NCBI GenBank assembly: GCA_945929875.1
Contig: CAMEOO010000002.1
Span: forward strand, 65,813 to 129,812
Reading direction: 5' to 3'
DNA length: 64,000 nucleotides
Origin: an uncultured Bacillales bacterium
GTDB taxonomy: Bacteria > Bacillota_I > Bacilli_A > RFN20 > CAG-449
Shown: piece after piece, positions 1,096-9,046 of the stretch
Position numbering within the stretch: the first letter of the stretch is position 1
Layout of the letters: each line of letters starts with the position of its first letter
Translations under genes and position numbers: made by a program
The notes under the pieces: generated by a model
Databases searched by the model: none
Told to the model about the DNA's origin: nothing
What the model saw: only the letters and a program-made list of their open reading frames with translations

Positions 1096-1128
1096 TCTCC
1101 CAATAACTAATATATTTCTAATAGATTT

Positions 1129-1160
1129 ATGCGATGTGAAGATTCACATCGCATTTTGCT
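1129..1160 (+). terminator. intrinsic terminator after the ABC ATPase gene
   Basis: Perfect 11-bp stem ATGCGATGTGA / TCACATCGCAT, 4-nt loop, then TTTT. Confidence 0.8.
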
Positions 1161-1479
1161 ATAGAAGTTTTTATTGTTTTAATTAGTACCCTTACTTCTT
1201 AAAAAAAAGAAATTCTATTTTGGTTTCTAAAGGAAATACAAAGTAAATTATAAAAAAAGAGCGTAAATAAAAAAACCATCCCCACATTTATCAATGTAGG
1301 GATACCATCTGGTTGTTAACCAAGCAATTATATTTTAACGAATCAATTTTATTTGTCAATAAAAAAATGGATTGATTTAGTTTAATGATAGTAATACAAT
1401 AATACTGCTCATAGATAAGTCCACGAGCGAATTGTATATTTTTGAAGCATGATTAAAGCAATTTAAGGAGGAGTGGACT

Positions 1480-1713
1480 ATGAGCAAAACAATCAATTCG
1501 CAATTGATAGGTCAATCTATCAAAACCTTAAGGCTAAAAAATCACTTAACTCAAAGTGATTTAGCCGATTCTATCGGTTACAGTATAAGAACTATTCGAC
1601 GTATTGAAACTGATGGAACAACTAGTATTGAGACAATCAATACATTCGCTGTATATTTCGATGTATCAGCGCTAGACATCCTTTCGGGATGTTTTCTTTT
1701 TGCAATTTTATAA
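1480..1713 (+). CDS. XRE-family helix-turn-helix transcriptional regulator (77 aa)
   Basis: IKTLRLKNHLTQSDLADSIGYSIRTIRRIE is a typical Cro/C1 HTH. Strong RBS AAGGAGGAG sits upstream of the ATG. The last ~12 codons are encoded by a terminator hairpin. Confidence 0.75.
   Translation: MSKTINSQLIGQSIKTLRLKNHLTQSDLADSIGYSIRTIRRIETDGTTSIETINTFAVYFDVSALDILSGCFLFAIL
1676..1702 (+). terminator. intrinsic terminator overlapping the 3' end of the XRE ORF
   Basis: ACATCC-tttcg-GGATGT followed by TTTCTTTTT. Confidence 0.55.
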
Positions 1714-1727
1714 ATGTTTTATCTATA

Positions 1728-2066
1728 TTACTTGTCTAATATCTCTTTACAGTAGTCACATAAAATTACGATACTTTCTTTAGCGGTATTCCATACTATT
1801 TCTAAATCTATGGTATCATATCCGTGAACAATTCTATTTCTCATTCCTCTTATTTGCTTCCAAGGTACCTGATTATATGTTTTTAGAAATTCATCTGATA
1901 ATCCGTTTGCTAATTCTCCAATTTGAAATAAATTGAAACAAATAACTTCTTTTATGTCTTCATCTTTTCTAAAAAATTCTTGACTAATTTTATTGGTTTT
2001 TTCAATAATTCTATTACATCTTTTGATGATTTGGAAAATAATCCCTTTATCTCTTTTTTCTAGCAT
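1728..2066 (-). CDS. hepT: HepT-like (DUF86) toxin, HEPN ribonuclease of a type VII toxin-antitoxin pair
   Basis: RNRIVHGY matches the HEPN Rx4HxY motif. Size is 112 aa. The start codon overlaps the stop of the upstream MntA gene (ATGCTAG, 7-nt overlap). Confidence 0.85.
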   Translation of the reverse strand: MLEKRDKGIIFQIIKRCNRIIEKTNKISQEFFRKDEDIKEVICFNLFQIGELANGLSDEFLKTYNQVPWKQIRGMRNRIVHGYDTIDLEIVWNTAKESIVILCDYCKEILDK

Positions 2067-2515
2067 AGTTTAATCATATCCTCCGTTATTGATTCTTTGA
2101 AATAATCATCCATAATTGATGAATCAAAGATTATGTCAACTTTTTTGCTTAAAGCAGATTCTAATTCATCTTCTAATATACCTTGATCAATTAAAGTCTT
2201 TATATTTCCTTTACCACAATAGATATCTATATCACTAGATTCTTTTGCTTCTCCTCTTGCGTAAGAGCCAAATAAATAAATATCGGTTATTCCATATTTA
2301 TTTAGAATAGGTTTAATTATCTTTTTGATTTCTTTAATTGTATAGACACTCCTGCTGATATTTTCGTTAATTAGTGATAGGATATATTCATTTTTATTGC
2401 TGATTCTTCTAAGATGATCGATTACTTTAGTATTTGATTTTTTAACTCTAAATTGATACATTTTATAGTTATTCTTATTATAACTATCAATATATTTTAA
2501 TTGATTAAATGCCAT
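2060..2515 (-). CDS. mntA: MntA-like nucleotidyltransferase antitoxin with an N-terminal ribbon-helix-helix-like extension
   Basis: LFGSYARGEAKESSDIDI is the minimal nucleotidyltransferase GSx10DxD motif. I place the start at MAFNQL (2515), 3 nt after GAGGTGAT, not at the track start 2551. The first ~65 aa (YKMYQFRVKKSNTKVIDHLRRISNKNEYILSLINENI) look like a CopG/Arc-type RHH. Confidence 0.8.
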   Translation of the reverse strand: MAFNQLKYIDSYNKNNYKMYQFRVKKSNTKVIDHLRRISNKNEYILSLINENISRSVYTIKEIKKIIKPILNKYGITDIYLFGSYARGEAKESSDIDIYCGKGNIKTLIDQGILEDELESALSKKVDIIFDSSIMDDYFKESITEDMIKLC

Positions 2516-2580
2516 AGTATCACCTCTATATACATATGATATCATATGCAAAAATGATAAATCAATTAATAATTTTTATT

Positions 2581-2619
2581 AAAATAAAAAACATTGGCGA
2601 CCTTCGTCATACAATGTTT
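2581..2619 (-). terminator. intrinsic terminator on the minus strand (3' end of the ncRNA candidate)
   Basis: Minus strand reads AAACATTG-(15 nt containing GAC/GTC)-CAATGTTT followed by TTTATTTT. Confidence 0.7.
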
Positions 2620-3150
2620 ACTTCAGCAAGTTCTTCGCGCACGTTCACACCAGGTTGGGCAATAGGTTGCGATCCTACTACTTCTGGGATGGGGTAAACC
2701 GGACAACGAGATGAGTTTTACTAATATCATCTAACTTTCAGAGAGTTCAGAAAAGGAAAAGTTCTAAACCATGGTTTTTTTTCGGCATTCTCCTACTCAA
2801 ACCTACCAAAGTAGTTATATGTGATTACTCACTTTCAAGCCGCGCACTTCCTTGATAGCGGAGATATTAGGTTATCAAGCTAATATCTTATCGCGGGATA
2901 TATTTCTATAGAGCCTCTTGTCGTGCCTACTCGGGTAGTCGTTTACTATTTATGAAGCACATTGCACATTAACCAAAGCGGTAAATTAATACCGTAAACC
3001 AAATTGGTCTTGTCCTTAGCACGGTATCCCATACTAATTTCTTTTTTGGTTAATTCCCAGCCATCTAACTAAGATGACTTCACTGGGTTCCAATGTAATT
3101 CCATTATAATATAATAATTAGAATGGTGTGAGGACAAGAAATGGCCTATT
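2581..3150 (-). ncRNA. large (~570 nt) structured non-coding RNA candidate of unassigned family (the ROOL/GOLLD class of ornate large RNAs is one hypothesis); 5' boundary uncertain (3150-3240)
   Basis: No ORF of 60 aa or more on either strand between 2552 and 3448. Local G+C is far above the flanks (31/60 at 2641-2700 by my count). Many nested helices and a pseudoknot-capable hairpin are present (see findings). It ends in a minus-strand intrinsic terminator. Confidence 0.55.
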
Positions 3151-3448
3151 AATTGTGGCGTTGAAGTATGGTAAAAAGAAGATAAGTGCTTGGTTTTTTA
3201 TAAATATCGATGATTTATTAAATAATAACTCATTGATAGATTATATATTATTGATTTTTAGGAAATTAACTCCATTAAAATTTTTTGATTCTTAATAAAA
3301 AGACAATGAAGGTTCCAATATTTTCAGCATTGTACTTCCAACTTTCACGGCCAATAAAGAATTCTCACTTCTTTTTTTTCTTTAGAAAAGGAGGGCATTC
3401 CATTCTCTTTTTGCTATAATTAAAAGAAAATTGAGGAAGTGTTATTAA

Positions 3449-3703
3449 ATGTACGATATATATGAATATAATTACGTTGATAAAGAAAGTGGCTTAGGTA
3501 TGGTTATATGGGTTAGAACTGATGAAGTAGCCCAGCAAATTGCTGATATAAATAGCAAAGATAGTAGCATCAAATGGATTCCTAGAAAAAGAAAATTCAA
3601 AATACCAGTACATATAAATATACCACCTTATGAGTTAGAACAAGAGCAACTTGAAGAGTCTCGAAGTGAGCTAAAAATAAGACAATCAAAACATGCAAAA
3701 TAA
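3449..3703 (+). CDS. hypothetical protein (84 aa), no recognisable motif
   Basis: ORF preceded by TGcTATAAT-like -10 and GAGGAAG. Lys/Glu-rich C-terminus. Confidence 0.4.
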   Translation: MYDIYEYNYVDKESGLGMVIWVRTDEVAQQIADINSKDSSIKWIPRKRKFKIPVHINIPPYELEQEQLEESRSELKIRQSKHAK

Positions 3704-3901
3704 AAATGAAATAAGTGACAGAAAACTATTAAACTTAAATGGTGAAGAAAAGAAAACGTATATTCTTCAGCGGGATAATATTTGAAAAAAATATTAGATG
3801 TATAGATGTTCGTTTTAATATTACTAATGATATTGAATGATAATTTTTGAAAATTGAAAAATTAATTGAAGAACTAGACTCTTTAATGAGCTGGTTTTTA
3901 T

Positions 3902-3942
3902 TTTGCAAAGTTTTTTGCAAAGTTCAAAATCGCTTTGCAAAC
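3902..3942. repeat. three copies of TTTGCAAA(G/C) (half-palindromic) spaced 12 and 20 nt apart
   Basis: Copies at 3902-3910, 3914-3922 and 3934-3942 (the last is 8/9). Confidence 0.6.
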
Positions 3943-3974
3943 TCCCAATTTTCTGTATCAAAGTTGTATCAAAA

Positions 3975-4000
3975 TCAAAAAAACACGGAAATTTCCGTGT
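3975..4000 (-). terminator. intrinsic terminator downstream of tRNA-Thr
   Basis: Minus strand ACACGGAAATTTCCGTGT (self-complementary) followed by TTTTTTG. Confidence 0.75.
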
Positions 4001-4011
4001 AAATTTTATAA

Positions 4012-4087
4012 TGGTGCCGGCTAGAGGACTTGAACCCCCGACCCACTGATTACGATTCAGTTGCTCTACCAACTGAGCTAAGCCGGC
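4012..4087 (-). tRNA. tRNA-Thr (anticodon CGU), CCA encoded
   Basis: Minus strand GCCGGCTTAGCTCAGTTGGTAGAGCAACTGAATCGTAATCAGTGGGTCGGGGGTTCAAGTCCTCTAGCCGGCACCA. The 7-bp acceptor stem is perfect, with D arm GCTC/GAGC, anticodon loop AUCGUAA and T loop TTCAAGT. Confidence 0.95.
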
Positions 4088-4127
4088 TTCCATTTAATTA
4101 TAGTATAGTTTGTTTTTTTAGAAAAGT

Positions 4128-5399
4128 TTATTTTTCAATATTGAAGTAATAGTCAATTAAAAGAATTAATTGAGGAAAATAAGTGGTTACTGTCCAAATT
4201 GATAATCCTTTTATATTTTCATCGATAGCTAAGTTAATTTTTGCATTTATTGAGCAAGCATCGTCAAAATGAACGACGTGTAATTTGCCATCTTTTTTAT
4301 AATTGAAATATGGTGTTTGGCTTTGACTATCATATTTTATTTCGACATTATATTTTTTCGCTAGATTGATTGCGTCTACATTTGCAATACTTTCTGCTTT
4401 AGACCCTTTTTGATATGGAAGAGTCCAATCGTAACCATAATTGGGTACGCCCATAATAATTTTTGATTCATCTATCTTACTTTTAGCGTATCTAATAACT
4501 CTTCTTACTTGATCAAGAGGAGCAACTGGCATTGGCTCTCCAAATGTATATCCCCATTCGTAGGTCATTAATATTACATAATCTACAATTTTTCCAAGGC
4601 TAAAATAATCGTGCGCGGTATATAATAGGCCTTTTTGCTCATCGCTATTTTTAGGTGCTAGAGCGACAAATAATTTTTTATCTTTTATTCCTTCTTTAAC
4701 TTTTTTGATAAATTCTGTGTATAAATTCTTTTCATCTTCGTTGACATATTCAAAATCGATGCATAAAGCATGATAGTTTTTTTCTTTTATCGTGTTATTT
4801 ATATCATTTATTAATGTATTTATCGCATTTTGGCTATTTAATATCTTAGAAGCTAGAGAAGTAGAAAAGCCCCCACTTTCTTTGATGTTAGCGACTACAA
4901 GCATCGAATTAGTATCATGAATATTTGCTTTAGAAATAATTCTTTGATCATCAAGAGGAACTAGATTACCATTTTCTTTTAGTCGATAAGCAAAAGGAGA
5001 AATATAGGAAAGAGTAGGCAAAGTGCTATTTAATACCTTATTTGTTATTCCTTGATAGCAATATCCATTTATTAATCCATTTACTTTTTCTAAATTATCG
5101 TAATCAAGATGAATTCTTAATCCTGGTTTGATACTATTTTCATCTTTTAGCGAATTATCTTTTAAAATTTTTTCTTTAGTTATAGAAAACTTTTTGCTAA
5201 GAGTATCTAAAGAATCACTTTCTTTAACTATGTAAGATTTATTGCTTGGATTAATAATTAAGCATTCACCGATAAGAAGCTCGTAAGGCTCTTCAAGATT
5301 ATTATCTTGAATTATTTGATTTACTGGGACGTTATATTCTTTGCTAAGTTTATAAACTGAATCCCCCTTTTTTACAAAATGAAAAAACATTTGTTTCAC
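4128..5399 (-). CDS. LysM-LysM-GH18 peptidoglycan hydrolase (YaaH/SleL-like)
   Basis: Two N-terminal LysM repeats (VKKGDSVYKLSKEYNVPVNQIIQDNNL and VKESDSLDTLSKKFSITKEKILKDNSL). GH18 catalytic-type motif LCIDFEYV. RBS GAGGTG. The 423-aa length matches the YaaH architecture. Confidence 0.8.
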   Translation of the reverse strand: MKQMFFHFVKKGDSVYKLSKEYNVPVNQIIQDNNLEEPYELLIGECLIINPSNKSYIVKESDSLDTLSKKFSITKEKILKDNSLKDENSIKPGLRIHLDYDNLEKVNGLINGYCYQGITNKVLNSTLPTLSYISPFAYRLKENGNLVPLDDQRIISKANIHDTNSMLVVANIKESGGFSTSLASKILNSQNAINTLINDINNTIKEKNYHALCIDFEYVNEDEKNLYTEFIKKVKEGIKDKKLFVALAPKNSDEQKGLLYTAHDYFSLGKIVDYVILMTYEWGYTFGEPMPVAPLDQVRRVIRYAKSKIDESKIIMGVPNYGYDWTLPYQKGSKAESIANVDAINLAKKYNVEIKYDSQSQTPYFNYKKDGKLHVVHFDDACSINAKINLAIDENIKGLSIWTVTTYFPQLILLIDYYFNIEK

Positions 5400-5456
5400 C
5401 TCAAAATAATATATTCAATAGTTTGCATAAAAAGACTAAAGAAGAATAACATAAAA

Positions 5457-5483
5457 ATAGCACTCGACTATTGACAGTGCTAA
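5457..5483. promoter_or_regulatory. CIRCE-like HrcA operator 1 (ATAGCACTC-N9-CAGTGCTAA)
   Basis: One mismatch per arm to TTAGCACTC-N9-GAGTGCTAA. Overlaps the -35 of the clpB promoter. Confidence 0.7.
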
Positions 5484-5499
5484 AAAATAAGAATATACT
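5471..5499 (+). promoter_or_regulatory. sigma-A type promoter of clpB
   Basis: TTGACA (5471-5476), 17-nt spacer, TATACT (5494-5499). Confidence 0.7.
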
Positions 5500-5503
5500 A
5501 TGA

Positions 5504-5530
5504 TTAGCACTTGAAAGTTTAGAGTGCTAA
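5504..5530. promoter_or_regulatory. CIRCE HrcA operator 2 (TTAGCACTT-N9-GAGTGCTAA)
   Basis: 17/18 match to the CIRCE consensus. Lies between the -10 and the GGAGGT RBS of clpB. Confidence 0.85.
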
Positions 5531-5546
5531 ATGGAGGTGGATAGTT

Positions 5547-8105
5547 ATGGAAAACAATATGACTGAAAAAGTTATGAGTATTCTTTCTAGAAGTCAAGAA
5601 ATAGCAAAAGAAAACTTTTCTTGCGAGATTGATGTTCCTCATTTAGTTAAAGCGATGCTTGATGATCAAGATTCGATGCTAAAAAACGTTTTAAGAAAAA
5701 TTAACTGCAACGTTAATTTATTTTCTGATACGGTTGAAGGCTTTATTTCATCAAAAGCGAAAAGTCAAAGTATTGATAACATGTATATCTCTACAGATTT
5801 AAATAATCTACTAAAGAATGCTGAATCATATATGAAGGCTTATCAAGATAGCTTTATCAGCGTTGAACACTTAATTCTTGCTATTTTTGATACGAAGCAT
5901 TCTCTTCTAAATAAATTATTAAACATTTCTAATTTCACAAAAGCAAATGTAAAAAAAGCCATTGAAGAAATTAGAGGTGGAAATAAAGTGATTGATCAAA
6001 ATCCAGAGGAAAAATACGAAGTATTAAAAAAATATGGTAGAGATTTAACTAGCGAAGTCGCTAAAGGAAAAATCGATCCAGTAATTGGTAGAGATGAAGA
6101 GATTCGTCGAGTCATTCAAATTCTATCGAGAAAGACTAAAAATAATCCAGTTTTAATTGGTGAACCTGGTGTAGGTAAAACTGCAATTGTTGAAGGTCTA
6201 GCCTGGAGAATCTTTAAAAAAGATGTTCCTTTTTCATTGAAAGATAAAACGATTTTTGAACTCGATTTAGGTTCATTAATTGCAGGTGCAAAATATCGTG
6301 GTGAATTTGAAGAAAGACTTAAAGCAGTCCTAAATGAGATTACAAAATCAGAAGGAAAAATTATTCTTTTCATCGATGAAATTCATACCTTAATCGGTGC
6401 GGGAAAGACTGATGGAGCAATGGATGCGGCTAACTTGCTAAAACCAATGCTAGCCCGAGGTGATTTACACTGTATTGGCGCGACTACTCTTGATGAGTAT
6501 CGAAAATACATTGAAAAAGATCCTGCTTTTGAAAGAAGAATGCAAAAGGTTATCGTCAGTGAGCCTACTGTGAAAGATACTATTTCGATTTTAAGAGGAT
6601 TAAAGGAAAGATATGAAAACCATCATGGTGTTCAAATCATGGATTCTGCCTTAGTTTCTGCAGCGGTTTTGTCAAATAGATATATTTCTGATCGATATTT
6701 ACCAGATAAAGCAATCGACTTAGTCGATGAAGCTTGTGCAGCGGTGAGAATGCAAATTGACTCTTTACCAGTTGAACTAGATGAAATTAATCACAAGATT
6801 GCTCAACTTGAAATTGAAAGGATCTCTTTAAGTAAAGAGGATTCTGAAGTTAGTAAAAAAAGACTAGAGCAGCTAGATAAAGAAATGGCTTCTTTAAAAG
6901 AAGAACAAAATAAGTTTACTGCAAAATGGCAAAATGAAAAGAAAGAACTTTTAAAAGCAAAAAGTGCGAAAGAGGAACTAGAAAAAGCTAAACTAGATCT
7001 TGAAAAAGCGATGAATAATGCGGATTATCAAGAAGCTAGTAGACTTAAATTTTCAGTGATTCCAGATTTAGAAAAAACTATTGAAAATAGTAAGAATAAT
7101 AAAGACGAAGATAAGATGCTCGATGAAGTAGTTAAAGAAGATGACATTGCAAATGTAATTAGTAAATGGACGGGCATTCCTCTTAGTAAATTAAAACAAA
7201 GCGAATCAAGTAAACTATTGTCTTTAAAAGATAATCTAAGTCAAAGAGTAATTGGGCAAGATGAAGCTCTAGAGAAAGTTTGCGATGCAATTATTCGTTC
7301 TCGAGCCGGAATTAATGATGAAAATCGACCAATAGGTAGTTTCCTCTTCTTAGGGCCTACTGGTGTTGGTAAAACTGAAGTAGCTAAATCTCTTGCGTCA
7401 AATCTATTTGATTCAGAAACTCAAATGGTAAGAATCGATATGTCTGAATATATGGAGAAATTCTCTGTGTCGCGTCTTGTTGGTGCCCCACCAGGATATG
7501 TAGGTTACGAAGAAGGTGGACAACTTACTGAAGCGGTGAGAAGAAAACCTTACTGTATCGTACTACTAGATGAAATTGAAAAAGCTCATCCAGATGTGTT
7601 TAATATCTTACTTCAAGTCCTTGACGATGGAAGATTAACCGACTCTCAAGGTAGAGTGGTTGACTTTAAAAACACCATCATCATTATGACTAGTAATATT
7701 GGTAGTGACTACCTTCTTGAAGGAAATAGTGAAGCATCTAGAAAGAAAGTAGAAAACGAATTAAAGAATCACTTTAAACCAGAATTCTTAAATCGTATCG
7801 ATGATATCGTCTACTTTAATTCTCTTGATAATTCAGTAGCTAGTAAGATTGTCAAGAAGTTTATTAAAGAGTTAGAAGTTCGTTTACAAAAGAATGAGAT
7901 TACTATTTCTCTTTCTGATGAAGCGATGAATGTAATTATCGAGCAAGGATTTGATAAAATTTATGGGGCAAGACCATTAAAACGATACATTCAAAAGGAG
8001 ATAGAAACTCCTTTGGCGCGCGATATTATCGCTGGAAGAATTTCTTCAAAGTGCCACGTGAATGTCACTTATTCAAATGATCATTTCGTCTTTGAAAAAC
8101 AGTAA
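5547..8105 (+). CDS. clpB: ATP-dependent chaperone ClpB
   Basis: Two AAA+ modules (GEPGVGKT and GPTGVGKT Walker A; [13 protein letters not shown] Walker B) separated by a long coiled-coil M-domain. Clp N-domain present. 852 aa. Confidence 0.95.
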
Positions 8106-8114
8106 ATTATTATT

Positions 8115-8147
8115 AGAGTAACGTAAAAGTATGTTACTCTTTTTTCT
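8115..8147 (+). terminator. intrinsic terminator after clpB
   Basis: AGAGTAAC-loop-GTTACTCT then TTTTTT. Confidence 0.8.
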
Positions 8148-8212
8148 TTACATAATTATTTATGTAAAAATAATCTCTACTTTATGTTATCATTAACTTT
8201 AGAGGTGTTTAT

Positions 8213-9046
8213 ATGCTTAATATTGGTTGTCATGTTTCTAGTGGAAAAGGATATGTAAATATGTATAAAGATACTATTTACGTTGGAGGAAACACTTTTC
8301 AGTTTTTCACTAGGAATCCTCGTGGAGGAAGCGTAAAAGAAGTGGATATTGATGATTTAAATAAATTCATCGAACTTAGTCAAAAGGATAATTTTGCTTA
8401 TTTACTCGCTCATGCTCCATACACTTTAAACTGTGCATCTAAAGACCCTCACATAAGAGAATTTGCAATCAAAGTATTTAAAGAAGATTTAAAAGTTTTA
8501 AATTTACTTCCTAAAGTATATTACAACTTCCATCCAGGAAGTCATGTTGGCCAAGGGGAAGAAGAAGGAATATCCTTAATAATCGATGCTTTAAATAACG
8601 TTATTGAAGAAGATCAACCTACGATGATCCTCCTTGAAACTATGGCGGGAAAAGGTAGTGAAATCGGCTATACTTTTGAGCAAATTAGAAAAATTATGGA
8701 TGGAGTTACCTTTAAAGATAAAGTGGGAGTATGCTTAGATACCTGCCACGTTTCTGATGGAGGATATGATATCGTCAATGATTTAGATGGAGTTCTAAAT
8801 CACTTTGACCAAGTTATTGGACTTGATCATTTAAAAGCGATCCATTTAAATGATAGTAAAAATATTATGGGAGCAAGAAAGGATCGCCACGAAAAAATAG
8901 GTGAAGGTTATTTAGGAAGAGAAACATTTAGAAAGATAATCAATCATCCAAAATTAAAAGATTTGCCATTTATTTTAGAAACTCCAAATGAATTAGATGG
9001 CTATAAAGAAGAAATAGAGCTTTTAAAAGAAATGAAAGAAGATTAG
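8213..9046 (+). CDS. nfo: deoxyribonuclease IV (endonuclease IV)
   Basis: IGCHVS...[11 protein letters not shown]...ETMAGKGSE...CLDTCH...HLNDSK...DRHEKIGEG matches the Nfo TIM-barrel metal-ligand pattern. Confidence 0.9.

Follow-up and report, generated by a model that had tools for sequence, protein, structure and literature searches.

Evidence for a chromosomal ROOL RNA gene with a conserved upstream palindrome in an uncultured Bacillales bacterium

The genes of the investigated locus are listed below. The window denotes the whole 64-kb stretch of DNA that was analysed.

1480 to 1713, plus strand: XRE-family HTH gene (77 aa; HTH_3, E 5.1e-10), convergent with the ROOL gene
1728 to 2515, minus strand: MntA and HepT toxin-antitoxin cassette, between the XRE gene and ROOL
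2578 to 3111, minus strand: ROOL RNA gene as spanned by the Rfam match (RF03087), 534 nt; the transcript is likely shorter
4012 to 4087, minus strand: tRNA-Thr (CGU; ARAGORN; Rfam tRNA, 66.1 bits), about 900 nt upstream of ROOL

The toxin-antitoxin cassette and the tRNA-Thr agree with a first-pass annotation that had been made from the sequence alone, and every sequence string quoted there lies where it had been placed. The HepT/MntA module comprises hepT (1728-2066; HepT-like, E 3.7e-23) and the gene of an MntA-type nucleotidyltransferase (2063-2515; NTP_transf_2, E 2.4e-13), both on the minus strand, and the nearby tRNA-Thr was recovered by ARAGORN at 4087 to 4012 on the same strand. The flanks of ROOL consist of housekeeping genes for ClpB, an AP endonuclease, an RsmE-type methyltransferase, AddAB-like proteins and AdhE, and do not represent a prophage. 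No att-like repeat was found around the ROOL locus. The scenario of an island integrated at tRNA-Thr was rejected, because neither a direct repeat of the tRNA 3' end nor an integrase was found.

Both strands are free of open reading frames of 60 aa or more between positions 2552 and 3448, as previously noted, and the longest ones (55 aa and 53 aa) lack a Pfam match. The G+C content of the ROOL stretch (38.8% vs 30.7% in the window) ranks in the top 1.4% of 534-nt windows. A recount for positions 2641 to 2700 confirmed the earlier value of 31/60; the statement that this is the most G+C-rich stretch of the window is wrong, because richer ones are located near 22.8 kb and at 43.4-44.3 kb. The minus strand was correctly proposed to be the structured one: its minimum free energy is -145.2 kcal/mol (z = -3.81), a value for which none of 100 shuffles was as good, and the fold of the plus strand has z = -1.71.

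The covariance model search with Rfam retrieved ROOL (RF03087) from 3111 to 2578 on the minus strand with 185.8 bits against a gathering score of 99.1 (E 3.8e-40). The match takes in model positions 1-574 of 574, is not truncated and represents the sole non-tRNA Rfam match in the 64-kb window, and the characteristic ROOL motifs are all present in the correct order. With permissive filters and E <= 1, no Rfam match to GOLLD, OLE, HEARO, raiA, RNase P, tmRNA or group II was obtained in the region 1100-4300; GOLLD also gave no match at its gathering threshold and ARAGORN did not find a tmRNA. At E <= 1, the matches besides ROOL and tRNA are two sub-threshold chance matches to Plastid-ycf2 (antisense to the tRNA) and IBV_D-RNA. 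The earlier idea that the minus strand encodes a large and ornate non-coding RNA of the kind of ROOL or GOLLD is hence supported, with ROOL and not GOLLD as the family retrieved, and its fallback of a new large RNA class is refuted by the full-length match. We regard the locus with high confidence as a ROOL RNA gene. The probability that the RNA merely resembles ROOL or GOLLD and represents a new large structured class is negligible: the sequence is far from phage ROOLs at the level of nucleotides (blastn against 50,697 phage records returned nothing), and the subgroup has its own promoter/operator architecture and XRE neighbour, but the full-length match at almost twice the gathering score, the right order of the motifs, the scores of the relatives (214-219 bits) and the family-specific covariation of a loop-flank contact all speak for ROOL. 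The RNA of the window is one more member of an established family and adds no new principle; the lesson for annotation is that Rfam settles findings of this type at once.

Our comparison includes 13 relatives of 67-79% identity from MAGs of Anaeroplasmatales/Bacilli and from gut or rumen metagenomes. The locus itself is also contained in the sequencing runs SRR35032000, SRR30884448 and SRR35032041. The relatives L047 and L051 score as ROOL in Rfam with 214 and 219 bits, other members reach 143-363 bits, and the score of the window lies in the lower half of the ROOL matches obtained here. A truncated ROOL copy (L059), which was found by blastn, stays below the Rfam threshold. Covariation was investigated in an alignment of 14 sequences (A2) on the basis of a 127-pair structure, with 500 shuffles and slid-register controls. 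In this alignment, 97.0% of the cells are paired, compared with 88.6% after shuffling and 35-42% in the slid registers, and 62 of the 127 pairs are changed on both sides, compared with 25.4 in the shuffled alignments, none of which (0/500) reached a count as high. An independent RNAalifold run yielded 113 pairs, and compensatory changes occur in 56 of these. The ROOL helices are kept by compensatory changes in the 13 relatives, and the covariation in homologs that the first-pass annotation had proposed as a check is present in this 14-sequence alignment. Regarding the consensus of Rfam, 108 of 142 aligned pairs are canonical in the window, and the 34 non-canonical ones are partly register errors in the AU-rich helix P1.

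These data leave virtually no room for a decayed protein-coding gene or for non-functional intergenic DNA with chance hairpins. The AT-rich surroundings do yield many chance short helices, and three of those in the first-pass annotation belong to this category, but the missing coding capacity described above, the compensatory changes at 62 base pairs, the occurrence of indels that are not multiples of three and the identity of 67-79% across relatives whose flanks differ completely argue for a functional RNA.

The distribution of the family was surveyed by sequence searches and patterns. The RNA had no match when it was compared with 50,697 phage genomes by blastn in 'distant' mode; ROOLs diverge too far for this program. 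The motif pattern AACCCNGTGAAG..GCNGGGA proved too loose on viral contigs and was rejected, as its 40 loci are mostly chance matches; among five of these loose-pattern loci that were put through Rfam, L011, L029 and L036 are ROOLs. Extension of the pattern by GGATAC on genome contigs provided a usable set of 16 loci, six of which are ROOLs in Rfam. A subgroup-specific pattern had no match in viral contigs, and the presence of the ROOL subgroup of the window on phages was rejected on this ground.

The elements of the RNA that are referred to in the following are listed in the direction of transcription.

3090 to 3096, minus strand: 5' strand of the closing helix P1 (ACAUUGG), which pairs with 2591-2597
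3056 to 3087, minus strand: ROOL hairpin most conserved in sequence (AACCCAGUGAAG ... GCUGGGA, inner CAUCU/AGAUG; model 23-58)
2862 to 2888, minus strand: 9-bp hairpin carrying the putative kissing loop (AGAUAUUAG / CUAAUAUCU; helix 13)
2873 to 2879, minus strand: hairpin loop CUUGAUA, partner of the loop-flank contact (helix 14 covariation)
2851 to 2857, minus strand: 3' flank UAUCAAG, other partner of the loop-flank contact (helix 14 covariation)
2746 to 2787, minus strand: variable linker loop (unstructured model positions ~350-405)
2581 to 2597, minus strand: 3' strand of P1 (CCAAUGU, 2597-2591), then the U-run UUUUUAUUUU (2590-2581), the 3' end with the presumed terminator

About half of the helices that had been traced by eye are real, and the rest are either not conserved or not RNA. 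The nested hairpin CCCAG/CTGGG with the inner CATCT/AGATG, the pairing CGGTA/TACCG (2979-2983/2990-2994), the 9-bp hairpin at 2862-2888 and the loop-flank "pseudoknot" TATCAAG/CTTGATA are all backed by the Rfam consensus and by covariation. All pairs of the hairpin at 3056-3087 (5/5 and 5/5) are canonical, and helix 2 is paired in 100% of the cells; helix 13 reaches 99.1% with compensatory changes in seven of eight pairs. P1 (helix 1) is paired in 89.6% of the cells with compensatory changes in three of seven pairs, its variants being ACAUUG/CAAUGU in the window, GUAUUG/CAAUAC in L047 and GCAUUG/CAAUGC in most others. The linker (alignment columns ~371-413) varies freely in length and sequence.

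The pairings GTTTAC/GTAAAC (2941-46/2994-99) and CCGCG/CGCGG (2840-44/2892-96) are not conserved in the 13 relatives and lack covariation; with 69% and 74% paired and no compensatory change, they are indistinguishable from shuffles and were discarded. The same lack of conservation and covariation in the 13 relatives applies to the stem of the proposed terminator, AAACATTG/CAATGTTT. Its local hairpin AAACAUUG x CAAUGUUU was rejected as the native fold, since it has no covariation of its own and competes with the covarying P1 and with the helix AUGU..CUUC x GAAG..ACAU (helices 1 and 6). One arm of the long-range helix CTTGTCCT/AGGACAAG would lie in DNA that is not transcribed, ahead of the -10 box; this arm, at 3131-3138, is half of a conserved DNA palindrome and not RNA. 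At the opposite end, each of the 13 sequences that extend far enough has CAAUG(C/U) and then 5-8 consecutive T residues, which suggests that the RNA terminates at the U-run 2590-2581, immediately behind the 3' strand of P1.

Upstream of P1, two further elements were located.

3103 to 3108, minus strand: -10 box TATAAT (promoter scan, 10/12 matches; paired with CTCACA 3132-3127)
3132 to 3146, no strand assigned: 15-bp palindrome GGACA-N5-TGTCC (GGACAAGAAATGGCC on the plus strand), overlapping the -35-like CTCACA 3127-3132

In each of the 12 loci whose upstream sequence is available, a TAnnnT box (TATAAT, TATACT, TAAACT or TAAAAT) has the same spacing to P1. The -10 box of the window precedes the first nucleotide of P1 by 6 nt, hence the predicted transcription start near A3096, and the arrangement points to a sigma-70-type promoter with a weak -35 element overlapped by the palindrome. 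The transcript probably extends from ~3096 to ~2583 (~514 nt), and both of its ends appear to coincide exactly with the closing helix P1. The earlier extension of the RNA up to 3150 was wrong, because 3097-3151 corresponds to promoter and putative operator DNA.

All 11 loci whose upstream sequence is available have the palindrome at a distance of 35-36 nt ahead of P1. Its arms hardly vary, the spacer is constant in length but not in sequence, and one arm is degenerate in the window (GGCCA). Each ROOL locus of the subgroup contains a single copy, compared with 0.03 expected per shuffled 64 kb, and the palindrome is absent upstream of seven ROOLs from other subgroups. From this conservation we infer that it serves as operator for a dimeric DNA-binding protein.

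A small XRE-family gene is located at the 3' end of ROOL in 10 of the 13 related loci. Homologues of 57-68% identity were found by tblastn in nine related ROOL loci, in most of which the gene directly adjoins the 3' end of ROOL or is at most ~200 nt away. The XRE and ROOL matches directly abut in L062, L063, L066 and L069, which identifies ~1713-2573 of the window as extra sequence. The MntA/HepT cassette is an insertion between XRE and ROOL outside the conserved module, and in L068 a RelB/Fic pair is found at the same junction on the other strand. This comparison also bears on the question of whether the RNA is a cis-acting leader or an RNA component of the downstream MntA/HepT genes, such as a regulatory or antitoxin-like RNA released by processing. 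ROOL, mntA and hepT are co-directional, and the distance of ~63 nt between the U-run and the mntA start makes read-through into mntA possible. However, at least nine relatives are devoid of MntA/HepT after ROOL and have the adjoining XRE gene instead, the RelB/Fic genes of L068 are unrelated and in the other orientation, ROOL owns a conserved U-run terminator, and a separate promoter-like site precedes mntA. We consider the leader explanation very improbable.

The ROOL gene of this lineage appears to be under switchable transcriptional control, possibly via the linked XRE-family protein. A tentative scenario, which we regard as possible although rather less than probable, is a portable regulated ROOL module: a dimeric HTH protein, most plausibly the linked XRE protein, would bind the palindrome centred ~43 nt upstream of the start and switch ROOL on or off, and the XRE-ROOL junction would act as a landing site for toxin-antitoxin genes. 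The degenerate arm of the window copy and the presence of the palindrome in L064, where no XRE gene lies within 5 kb, count against such regulation. Autoregulation of the XRE gene via the same palindrome was rejected, as neither a palindrome copy nor half-sites were found upstream of this gene. If the scenario is true, ROOL production would be conditional, for example on stress or phage, and would offer the first regulatory handle on cage function. The operator-like palindrome and the linked XRE gene suggest regulated expression and thereby a practical entry point to the question of when cells make cages.

ROOL is one of the few natural RNAs that are known to form a closed RNA-only cage larger than the ribosome, and for the role of this cage encapsulation or scaffolding has been suggested. 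The published assemblies are octameric or hexameric RNA-only cages with the linker disordered inside (PMC12286853, PMC12990946). The covarying L8 x J6/8 contact has been described by cryo-EM as a quaternary kissing loop between ROOL subunits, namely bridge B4 of Kretsch et al. or J11/9 x L11' in the Wang/Su nomenclature (PMC12286853, PMC12990946), and assembly is reported to involve a strand exchange creating the quaternary kissing loop (PMC12515178, on the work of Ling et al.). The core pairs of the loop-flank contact are UGAUA/UAUCA in the window, UGAGA/UCUCA in most relatives and UAGGA/UCCUA in L060 and L065, and distant ROOLs exhibit GGAGU/ACUCC, UGGUG/CACCA and UGAACAA/UUGUUCA. At least seven different complementary sequence pairs occupy these positions in near and distant ROOLs, and clear compensatory changes maintain the kissing loop between subunits even among close relatives. 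The best reading of the pseudoknot of the first-pass annotation is a contact that links different molecules once the cage has assembled.

By homology to the structures of Efa, Lsa, env-120 and ROOLFirm, the RNA would fold into a flat multi-junction ROOL protomer, and protomers are expected to self-assemble, with no protein involved, into a hollow cage of dihedral symmetry, either a homo-hexamer or a homo-octamer. In such a cage, the loop CUUGAUA (2879-2873) would pair with UAUCAAG (2857-2851) of the adjoining subunit and form one bridge, one of the ~7 inter-subunit bridges having been mapped onto the window sequence, and the variable linker 2787-2746 would point into the cavity. The window counterpart of the stoichiometry-setting element is a 4-bp hairpin with a GAAA loop, for which reason hexamer and octamer are not predictable from it.

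Cage formation by the window ROOL is suggested by homology and by the kept complementarity of the kissing loop. It is unlikely, yet deserves consideration, that this genuine ROOL exists without an RNA-only cage, as a monomer, a tetramer or a protein- or tRNA-bound particle. The Efa ROOL also occurs as monomer and tetramer in vitro (PMC12990946), cage function is unproven in vivo, the apical element differs among members and alters the stoichiometry, and ROOLs reside beside tRNA genes (tRNA-Thr here, tRNA arrays in L036, L011, L049 and L029). On the other hand, the window retains, and even extends to 7 bp, the covarying loop-flank contact that links subunits in all solved cages, four different ROOLs with less than 50% similarity all form cages (10.1101/2025.04.15.649049), and ROOL cages persist at 12.5 nM (PMC12286853).

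Among the known large RNAs, OLE, raiA and HEARO share with the RNA of the window that they are large structured bacterial non-coding RNAs from comparative genomics; OLE forms dimers together with protein partners, raiA is a monomer and HEARO depends on IsrB (PMC12286853). GOLLD is likewise large, ornate and non-coding, is frequently located near tRNAs and in phages, and also forms an RNA-only cage, a 14-mer (PMC12286853), but it differs in sequence and secondary structure and is larger (>800 nt). ROOLs comprise ~581 nt, are often located near tRNAs and occur inside and outside of prophages (PMC5737381). With the solved representatives from Enterococcus faecalis, Ligilactobacillus salivarius, env-120 and Firmicutes CAG:227, the window RNA has in common the order of motifs and helices with a full-length model match, the variable internal linker, the covarying loop-flank contact and the general setting of a non-coding RNA of ~0.5 kb near a tRNA in a low-G+C genome of the Firmicutes/Mycoplasmatota type. 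It deviates from them in being shorter (~514-534 nt vs a family mean of 581 nt), in the strongly reduced hairpin at model positions 110-135, in the apical hairpin, a 4-bp GNRA stem-loop, and in the kissing-loop complementarity of 7 nt compared with 3 bp in Efa. The palindromic operator, as we interpret it, and the linked XRE gene of the subgroup were found neither in seven other ROOL loci nor in the cited ROOL papers. The gene of the window is chromosomal and lies among housekeeping genes, not on a prophage or megaplasmid. This context equals the non-prophage ROOL situation described in PMC5737381 and documents a chromosomal, non-prophage ROOL subgroup in Anaeroplasmatales-like bacteria of the gut.

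The RNA encoded on the minus strand belongs to a known family that is recognised by a routine Rfam scan. The whole window was searched against Rfam 15 at the gathering thresholds, which returned two matches, namely, a tRNA (4087..4015, minus strand) and the ROOL RNA (RF03087; 3111..2578, minus strand), the latter at 185.8 bits, where the gathering score is 99.1 (E 3.8e-40), and covering positions 1-574 of the 574-position model without truncation. The first-pass annotation had proposed a ROOL- or GOLLD-type RNA and was right about the kind, which is ROOL. The GOLLD alternative lacks a model match: a permissive scan of region 1100-4300 (E <= 1) found no GOLLD, OLE, HEARO, raiA, RNase P, tmRNA or group II intron, the last three of which had rightly been discounted by eye, and its only extra matches were two chance ones below threshold. 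ARAGORN reported solely a tRNA-Thr(CGU). When the Rfam consensus structure is projected on the window, 108 of the 142 aligned pairs are canonical, with perfect pairing in the core hairpins and a poorly registered alignment of the AU-rich closing helix. At the sequence level, the score above threshold, length, non-coding status, helices, covariation, loop-junction contact, linker and context all agree with ROOL; for GOLLD and the other large RNAs the model tests are negative.

All sequence strings quoted in the first-pass annotation are present where it had placed them, and no ORF of 60 aa or more exists on either strand of 2552-3448, as it had claimed. The longest ORFs in this interval comprise 55 aa (3128-3295, plus strand) and 53 aa (2536-2697, plus strand), neither of which has a Pfam match. 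The stretch is enriched in G+C (38.8% vs 30.7% for the window; top 1.4% among 534-nt windows). It had been supposed to be the richest part, yet values are higher at 43.4-44.3 kb and in parts of an adhE-like gene around 22.8 kb. The minus strand was rightly taken for the structured one: folded alone it reaches -145.2 kcal/mol (z = -3.81, no shuffle being as good), compared with z = -1.71 for the plus strand.

A blastn search of the RNA against phage genomes found nothing, and homologues were retrieved by pattern scans built on ROOL motifs. The window locus itself recurs at 99.9-100% identity in assemblies of public sequencing runs, on three short contigs, and 13 relatives share 67-79% identity with the window RNA.

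Close relatives of the window RNA
L047: uncultured Anaeroplasmatales MAG, 75.5% identity, 214 bits to ROOL
L059: Anaeroplasmataceae MAG, 79% identity over the first 279 nt
L051: Bacilli bacterium SUG353, 219 bits to ROOL
L060-L069: contigs from gut and rumen metagenomes

The ROOL of L059 (3903-4334) resembles that of the window (~79%) for its first ~280 nt and continues beyond GGCUUGAU with unrelated AT-rich sequence; it scores below the Rfam threshold. Either this copy has been truncated or disrupted, or the assembly is chimeric.

RNAalifold predicted 113 pairs for the alignment of all 14 sequences, and 56 of these show compensatory double changes. With the closing helix P1 and the loop-flank contact added, the resulting 127-pair structure has 97.0% of its alignment cells paired, compared with 88.6% after shuffling, and 62 of the 127 pairs (25.4 in shuffles) changed on both sides; none of 500 shuffles matched these values. 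With the 3' partners shifted by 1-3 columns, the pairing falls to 35-42%. This covariation, for which the first-pass annotation had recommended a homologue comparison, indicates that the RNA structure is real and under selection.

The helices traced by eye fared differently. The hairpin CCCAG/CTGGG with its inner CATCT/AGATG is the most conserved ROOL hairpin, CGGTA/TACCG was likewise confirmed, and the 9-bp hairpin AGATATTAG/CTAATATCT covaries in seven of eight pairs. Three others pair in the relatives no better than shuffles, namely, GTTTAC/GTAAAC (69%), CCGCG/CGCGG (74%) and the terminator stem AAACATTG/CAATGTTT (88%), with one compensatory pair among all three. The strands of the rejected terminator stem serve two covarying helices instead, P1 and AUGU..CUUC x GAAG..ACAU, the second of which reads AUAC..CUCU x AGAG..GUAU in relatives. 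The “8-bp long-range helix” (3009-3016/3131-3138) was dismissed; it joins the RNA to DNA upstream of the promoter -10 box.

The complementarity between the loop (CUUGAUA) and the 3' flank (UAUCAAG) of the 9-bp hairpin is real and has been kept through different sequence pairs: UGAUA/UAUCA in the window, UGAGA/UCUCA in most relatives, UAGGA/UCCUA in L060 and L065, and GGAGU/ACUCC, UGGUG/CACCA, UGAACAA/UUGUUCA or UGGC/GCCA in distant ROOLs. It is probably not a pseudoknot in cis. The ROOLs of E. faecalis and env-120 form protein-free D4 octameric cages ~28 nm across, as seen by cryo-EM, that of L. salivarius is a hexamer, and a short apical stem sets the stoichiometry (PMC12286853, PMC12990946, 10.1101/2025.04.15.649049). 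In these cages the loop-junction pseudoknot suggested by covariation is a kissing loop between neighbouring subunits, designated B4, L8 x J6/8, or J11/9 x L11' (PMC12286853, PMC12990946), and strand exchange during assembly creates the contact (PMC12515178, on Ling et al.). A cis contact would require a 4-nt connector (CCGC) to span the 9-bp stem, which we judge from general pseudoknot geometry to be strained, and this fits pairing in trans. By homology, the window RNA would assemble into a cage like the solved ROOLs, whose variable linker is disordered within the cage cavity, and the loop-flank contact would be the bridge between its subunits.

The ends of the transcript are suggested by conservation. 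In 12 of 12 loci with upstream sequence, the first P1 nucleotide is preceded, 6 nt away, by a TAnnnT box, and this fixed distance places the inferred transcription start near A3096; the first 15 nt of the Rfam match (3111-3097) would accordingly be promoter DNA, not RNA. The closing helix together with the U-run would act as terminator.

Promoter and predicted transcript ends (minus strand)
3146-3132, within 3127-3151: palindrome, one arm GGCCA in the window
3132-3127: weak -35-like box CTCACA, overlapped by the palindrome
3108-3103: -10 box TATAAT
3096-3090: P1 5' strand ACAUUGG, predicted RNA start
2597-2591: P1 3' strand CCAAUGU, near the predicted RNA end
2590-2581: UUUUUAUUUU, directly following P1

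The palindrome GGACA-N5-TGTCC, followed by TCAC, is located 35-36 nt upstream of P1 in all 11 loci with enough sequence (window, L051, L059, L060, L062-L066, L068, L069), one copy per locus vs 0.03 expected per shuffled 64 kb. Its arms are near-invariant, without compensatory change, and its spacer is fixed in length and variable in sequence. Seven ROOLs of other subgroups lack it upstream and have ordinary TTGACA-17-TATAAT promoters instead. The palindrome looks like a putative operator of a dimeric DNA-binding regulator. A perfect TTGACA is found 19-24 nt upstream of P1 in L062, L063, L064, L066, L068 and L069, where just 6 nt separate it from the -10 box, too few for it to act as the -35 box; the window, L059, L060, L065 and L051 have no TTGACA near the -10 box.

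A gene for an XRE-family HTH protein accompanies the RNA. Its homologues (57-68% identity) are convergent to ROOL in nine related loci, where they adjoin the ROOL 3' end or lie at most ~200 nt away, with the exception of L068.

XRE-family genes beside ROOL
window, 1480-1713, plus strand: XRE-family HTH gene, 77 aa
L051, 2585-2806: XRE homologue
L060, 3-134: XRE homologue
L061, 783-1010: XRE homologue
L062, 131-352: XRE homologue
L063, 7173-7394: XRE homologue
L065, 1223-1447: XRE homologue
L066, 647-856: XRE homologue
L068, 451-675: XRE homologue
L069, 767-994: XRE homologue

The gene is linked in 10 of the 13 loci having a 3' flank, the window counted, and the outer flanks of XRE-ROOL loci are wholly different. 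The gene may be functionally linked to ROOL, e.g., as its putative regulator. The XRE reading frame of L063 extends ~50 nt into the ROOL 3' end.

The XRE-ROOL junction has acquired different toxin-antitoxin-type cassettes across genomes. In the window (1713-2573) it holds an insertion of ~860 nt with MntA and HepT on the ROOL strand, and in L068 (710-2444) a RelB antitoxin, a Fic/DOC protein and a 217-aa membrane ORF. This difference indicates that the HepT/MntA module is an accessory insertion and no partner of the RNA. Promoter-like sites occur between the ROOL U-run and the mntA start (2536-2582, minus strand), one being TTGATT-18-TATCAT with an extended TG. The cassette is probably transcribed from a promoter of its own, and read-through from ROOL may also occur.

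On the other side, an 84-aa ORF (3449-3703, plus strand) diverges from ROOL; GAGGAAG, located 9 nt before it, makes a good ribosome-binding site. The ORF matches no Pfam family, and its only other occurrence found is on the near-identical contig L001. The equivalent position in L068 is occupied by a divergent gene for a second HTH_3 protein (3079-3381). ROOLs often occur near tRNAs, inside and outside prophages (PMC5737381), and the tRNA-Thr pointed out in the first-pass annotation is indeed present ~900 nt upstream, with no att-like repeat or integrase found near it or ROOL. The next 20 kb are of housekeeping character (GH18/LysM protein, ClpB, AP endonuclease, RsmE-type methyltransferase, radical-SAM enzyme, DeoC, LacI-type regulator, AddAB-like nuclease and helicase, AdhE). 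The locus lies on the chromosome and cannot be recognised as a prophage; the pattern specific to the subgroup had no matches in viral contigs. Other ROOLs, on viral contigs and a Clostridia MAG (L036 at 2763-6871 and 7648-8229, L011, L029, L049), lie directly beside tRNA genes or long tRNA arrays; L036 carries at least 17 tRNAs, one of which shares 91% identity over 55 nt with the window tRNA-Thr.

It is conceivable, if rather doubtful, that the linked XRE-type regulator switches ROOL transcription and that both belong to a small portable unit in which toxin-antitoxin cassettes accumulate as well. Compared with described ROOLs, the window RNA is shorter with one hairpin reduced, and it has a 4-bp GNRA hairpin as its apical stem-loop and a kissing complementarity of 7 nt; it further differs in its chromosomal, non-phage location and in belonging to a subgroup with its own putative operator and a linked XRE gene.
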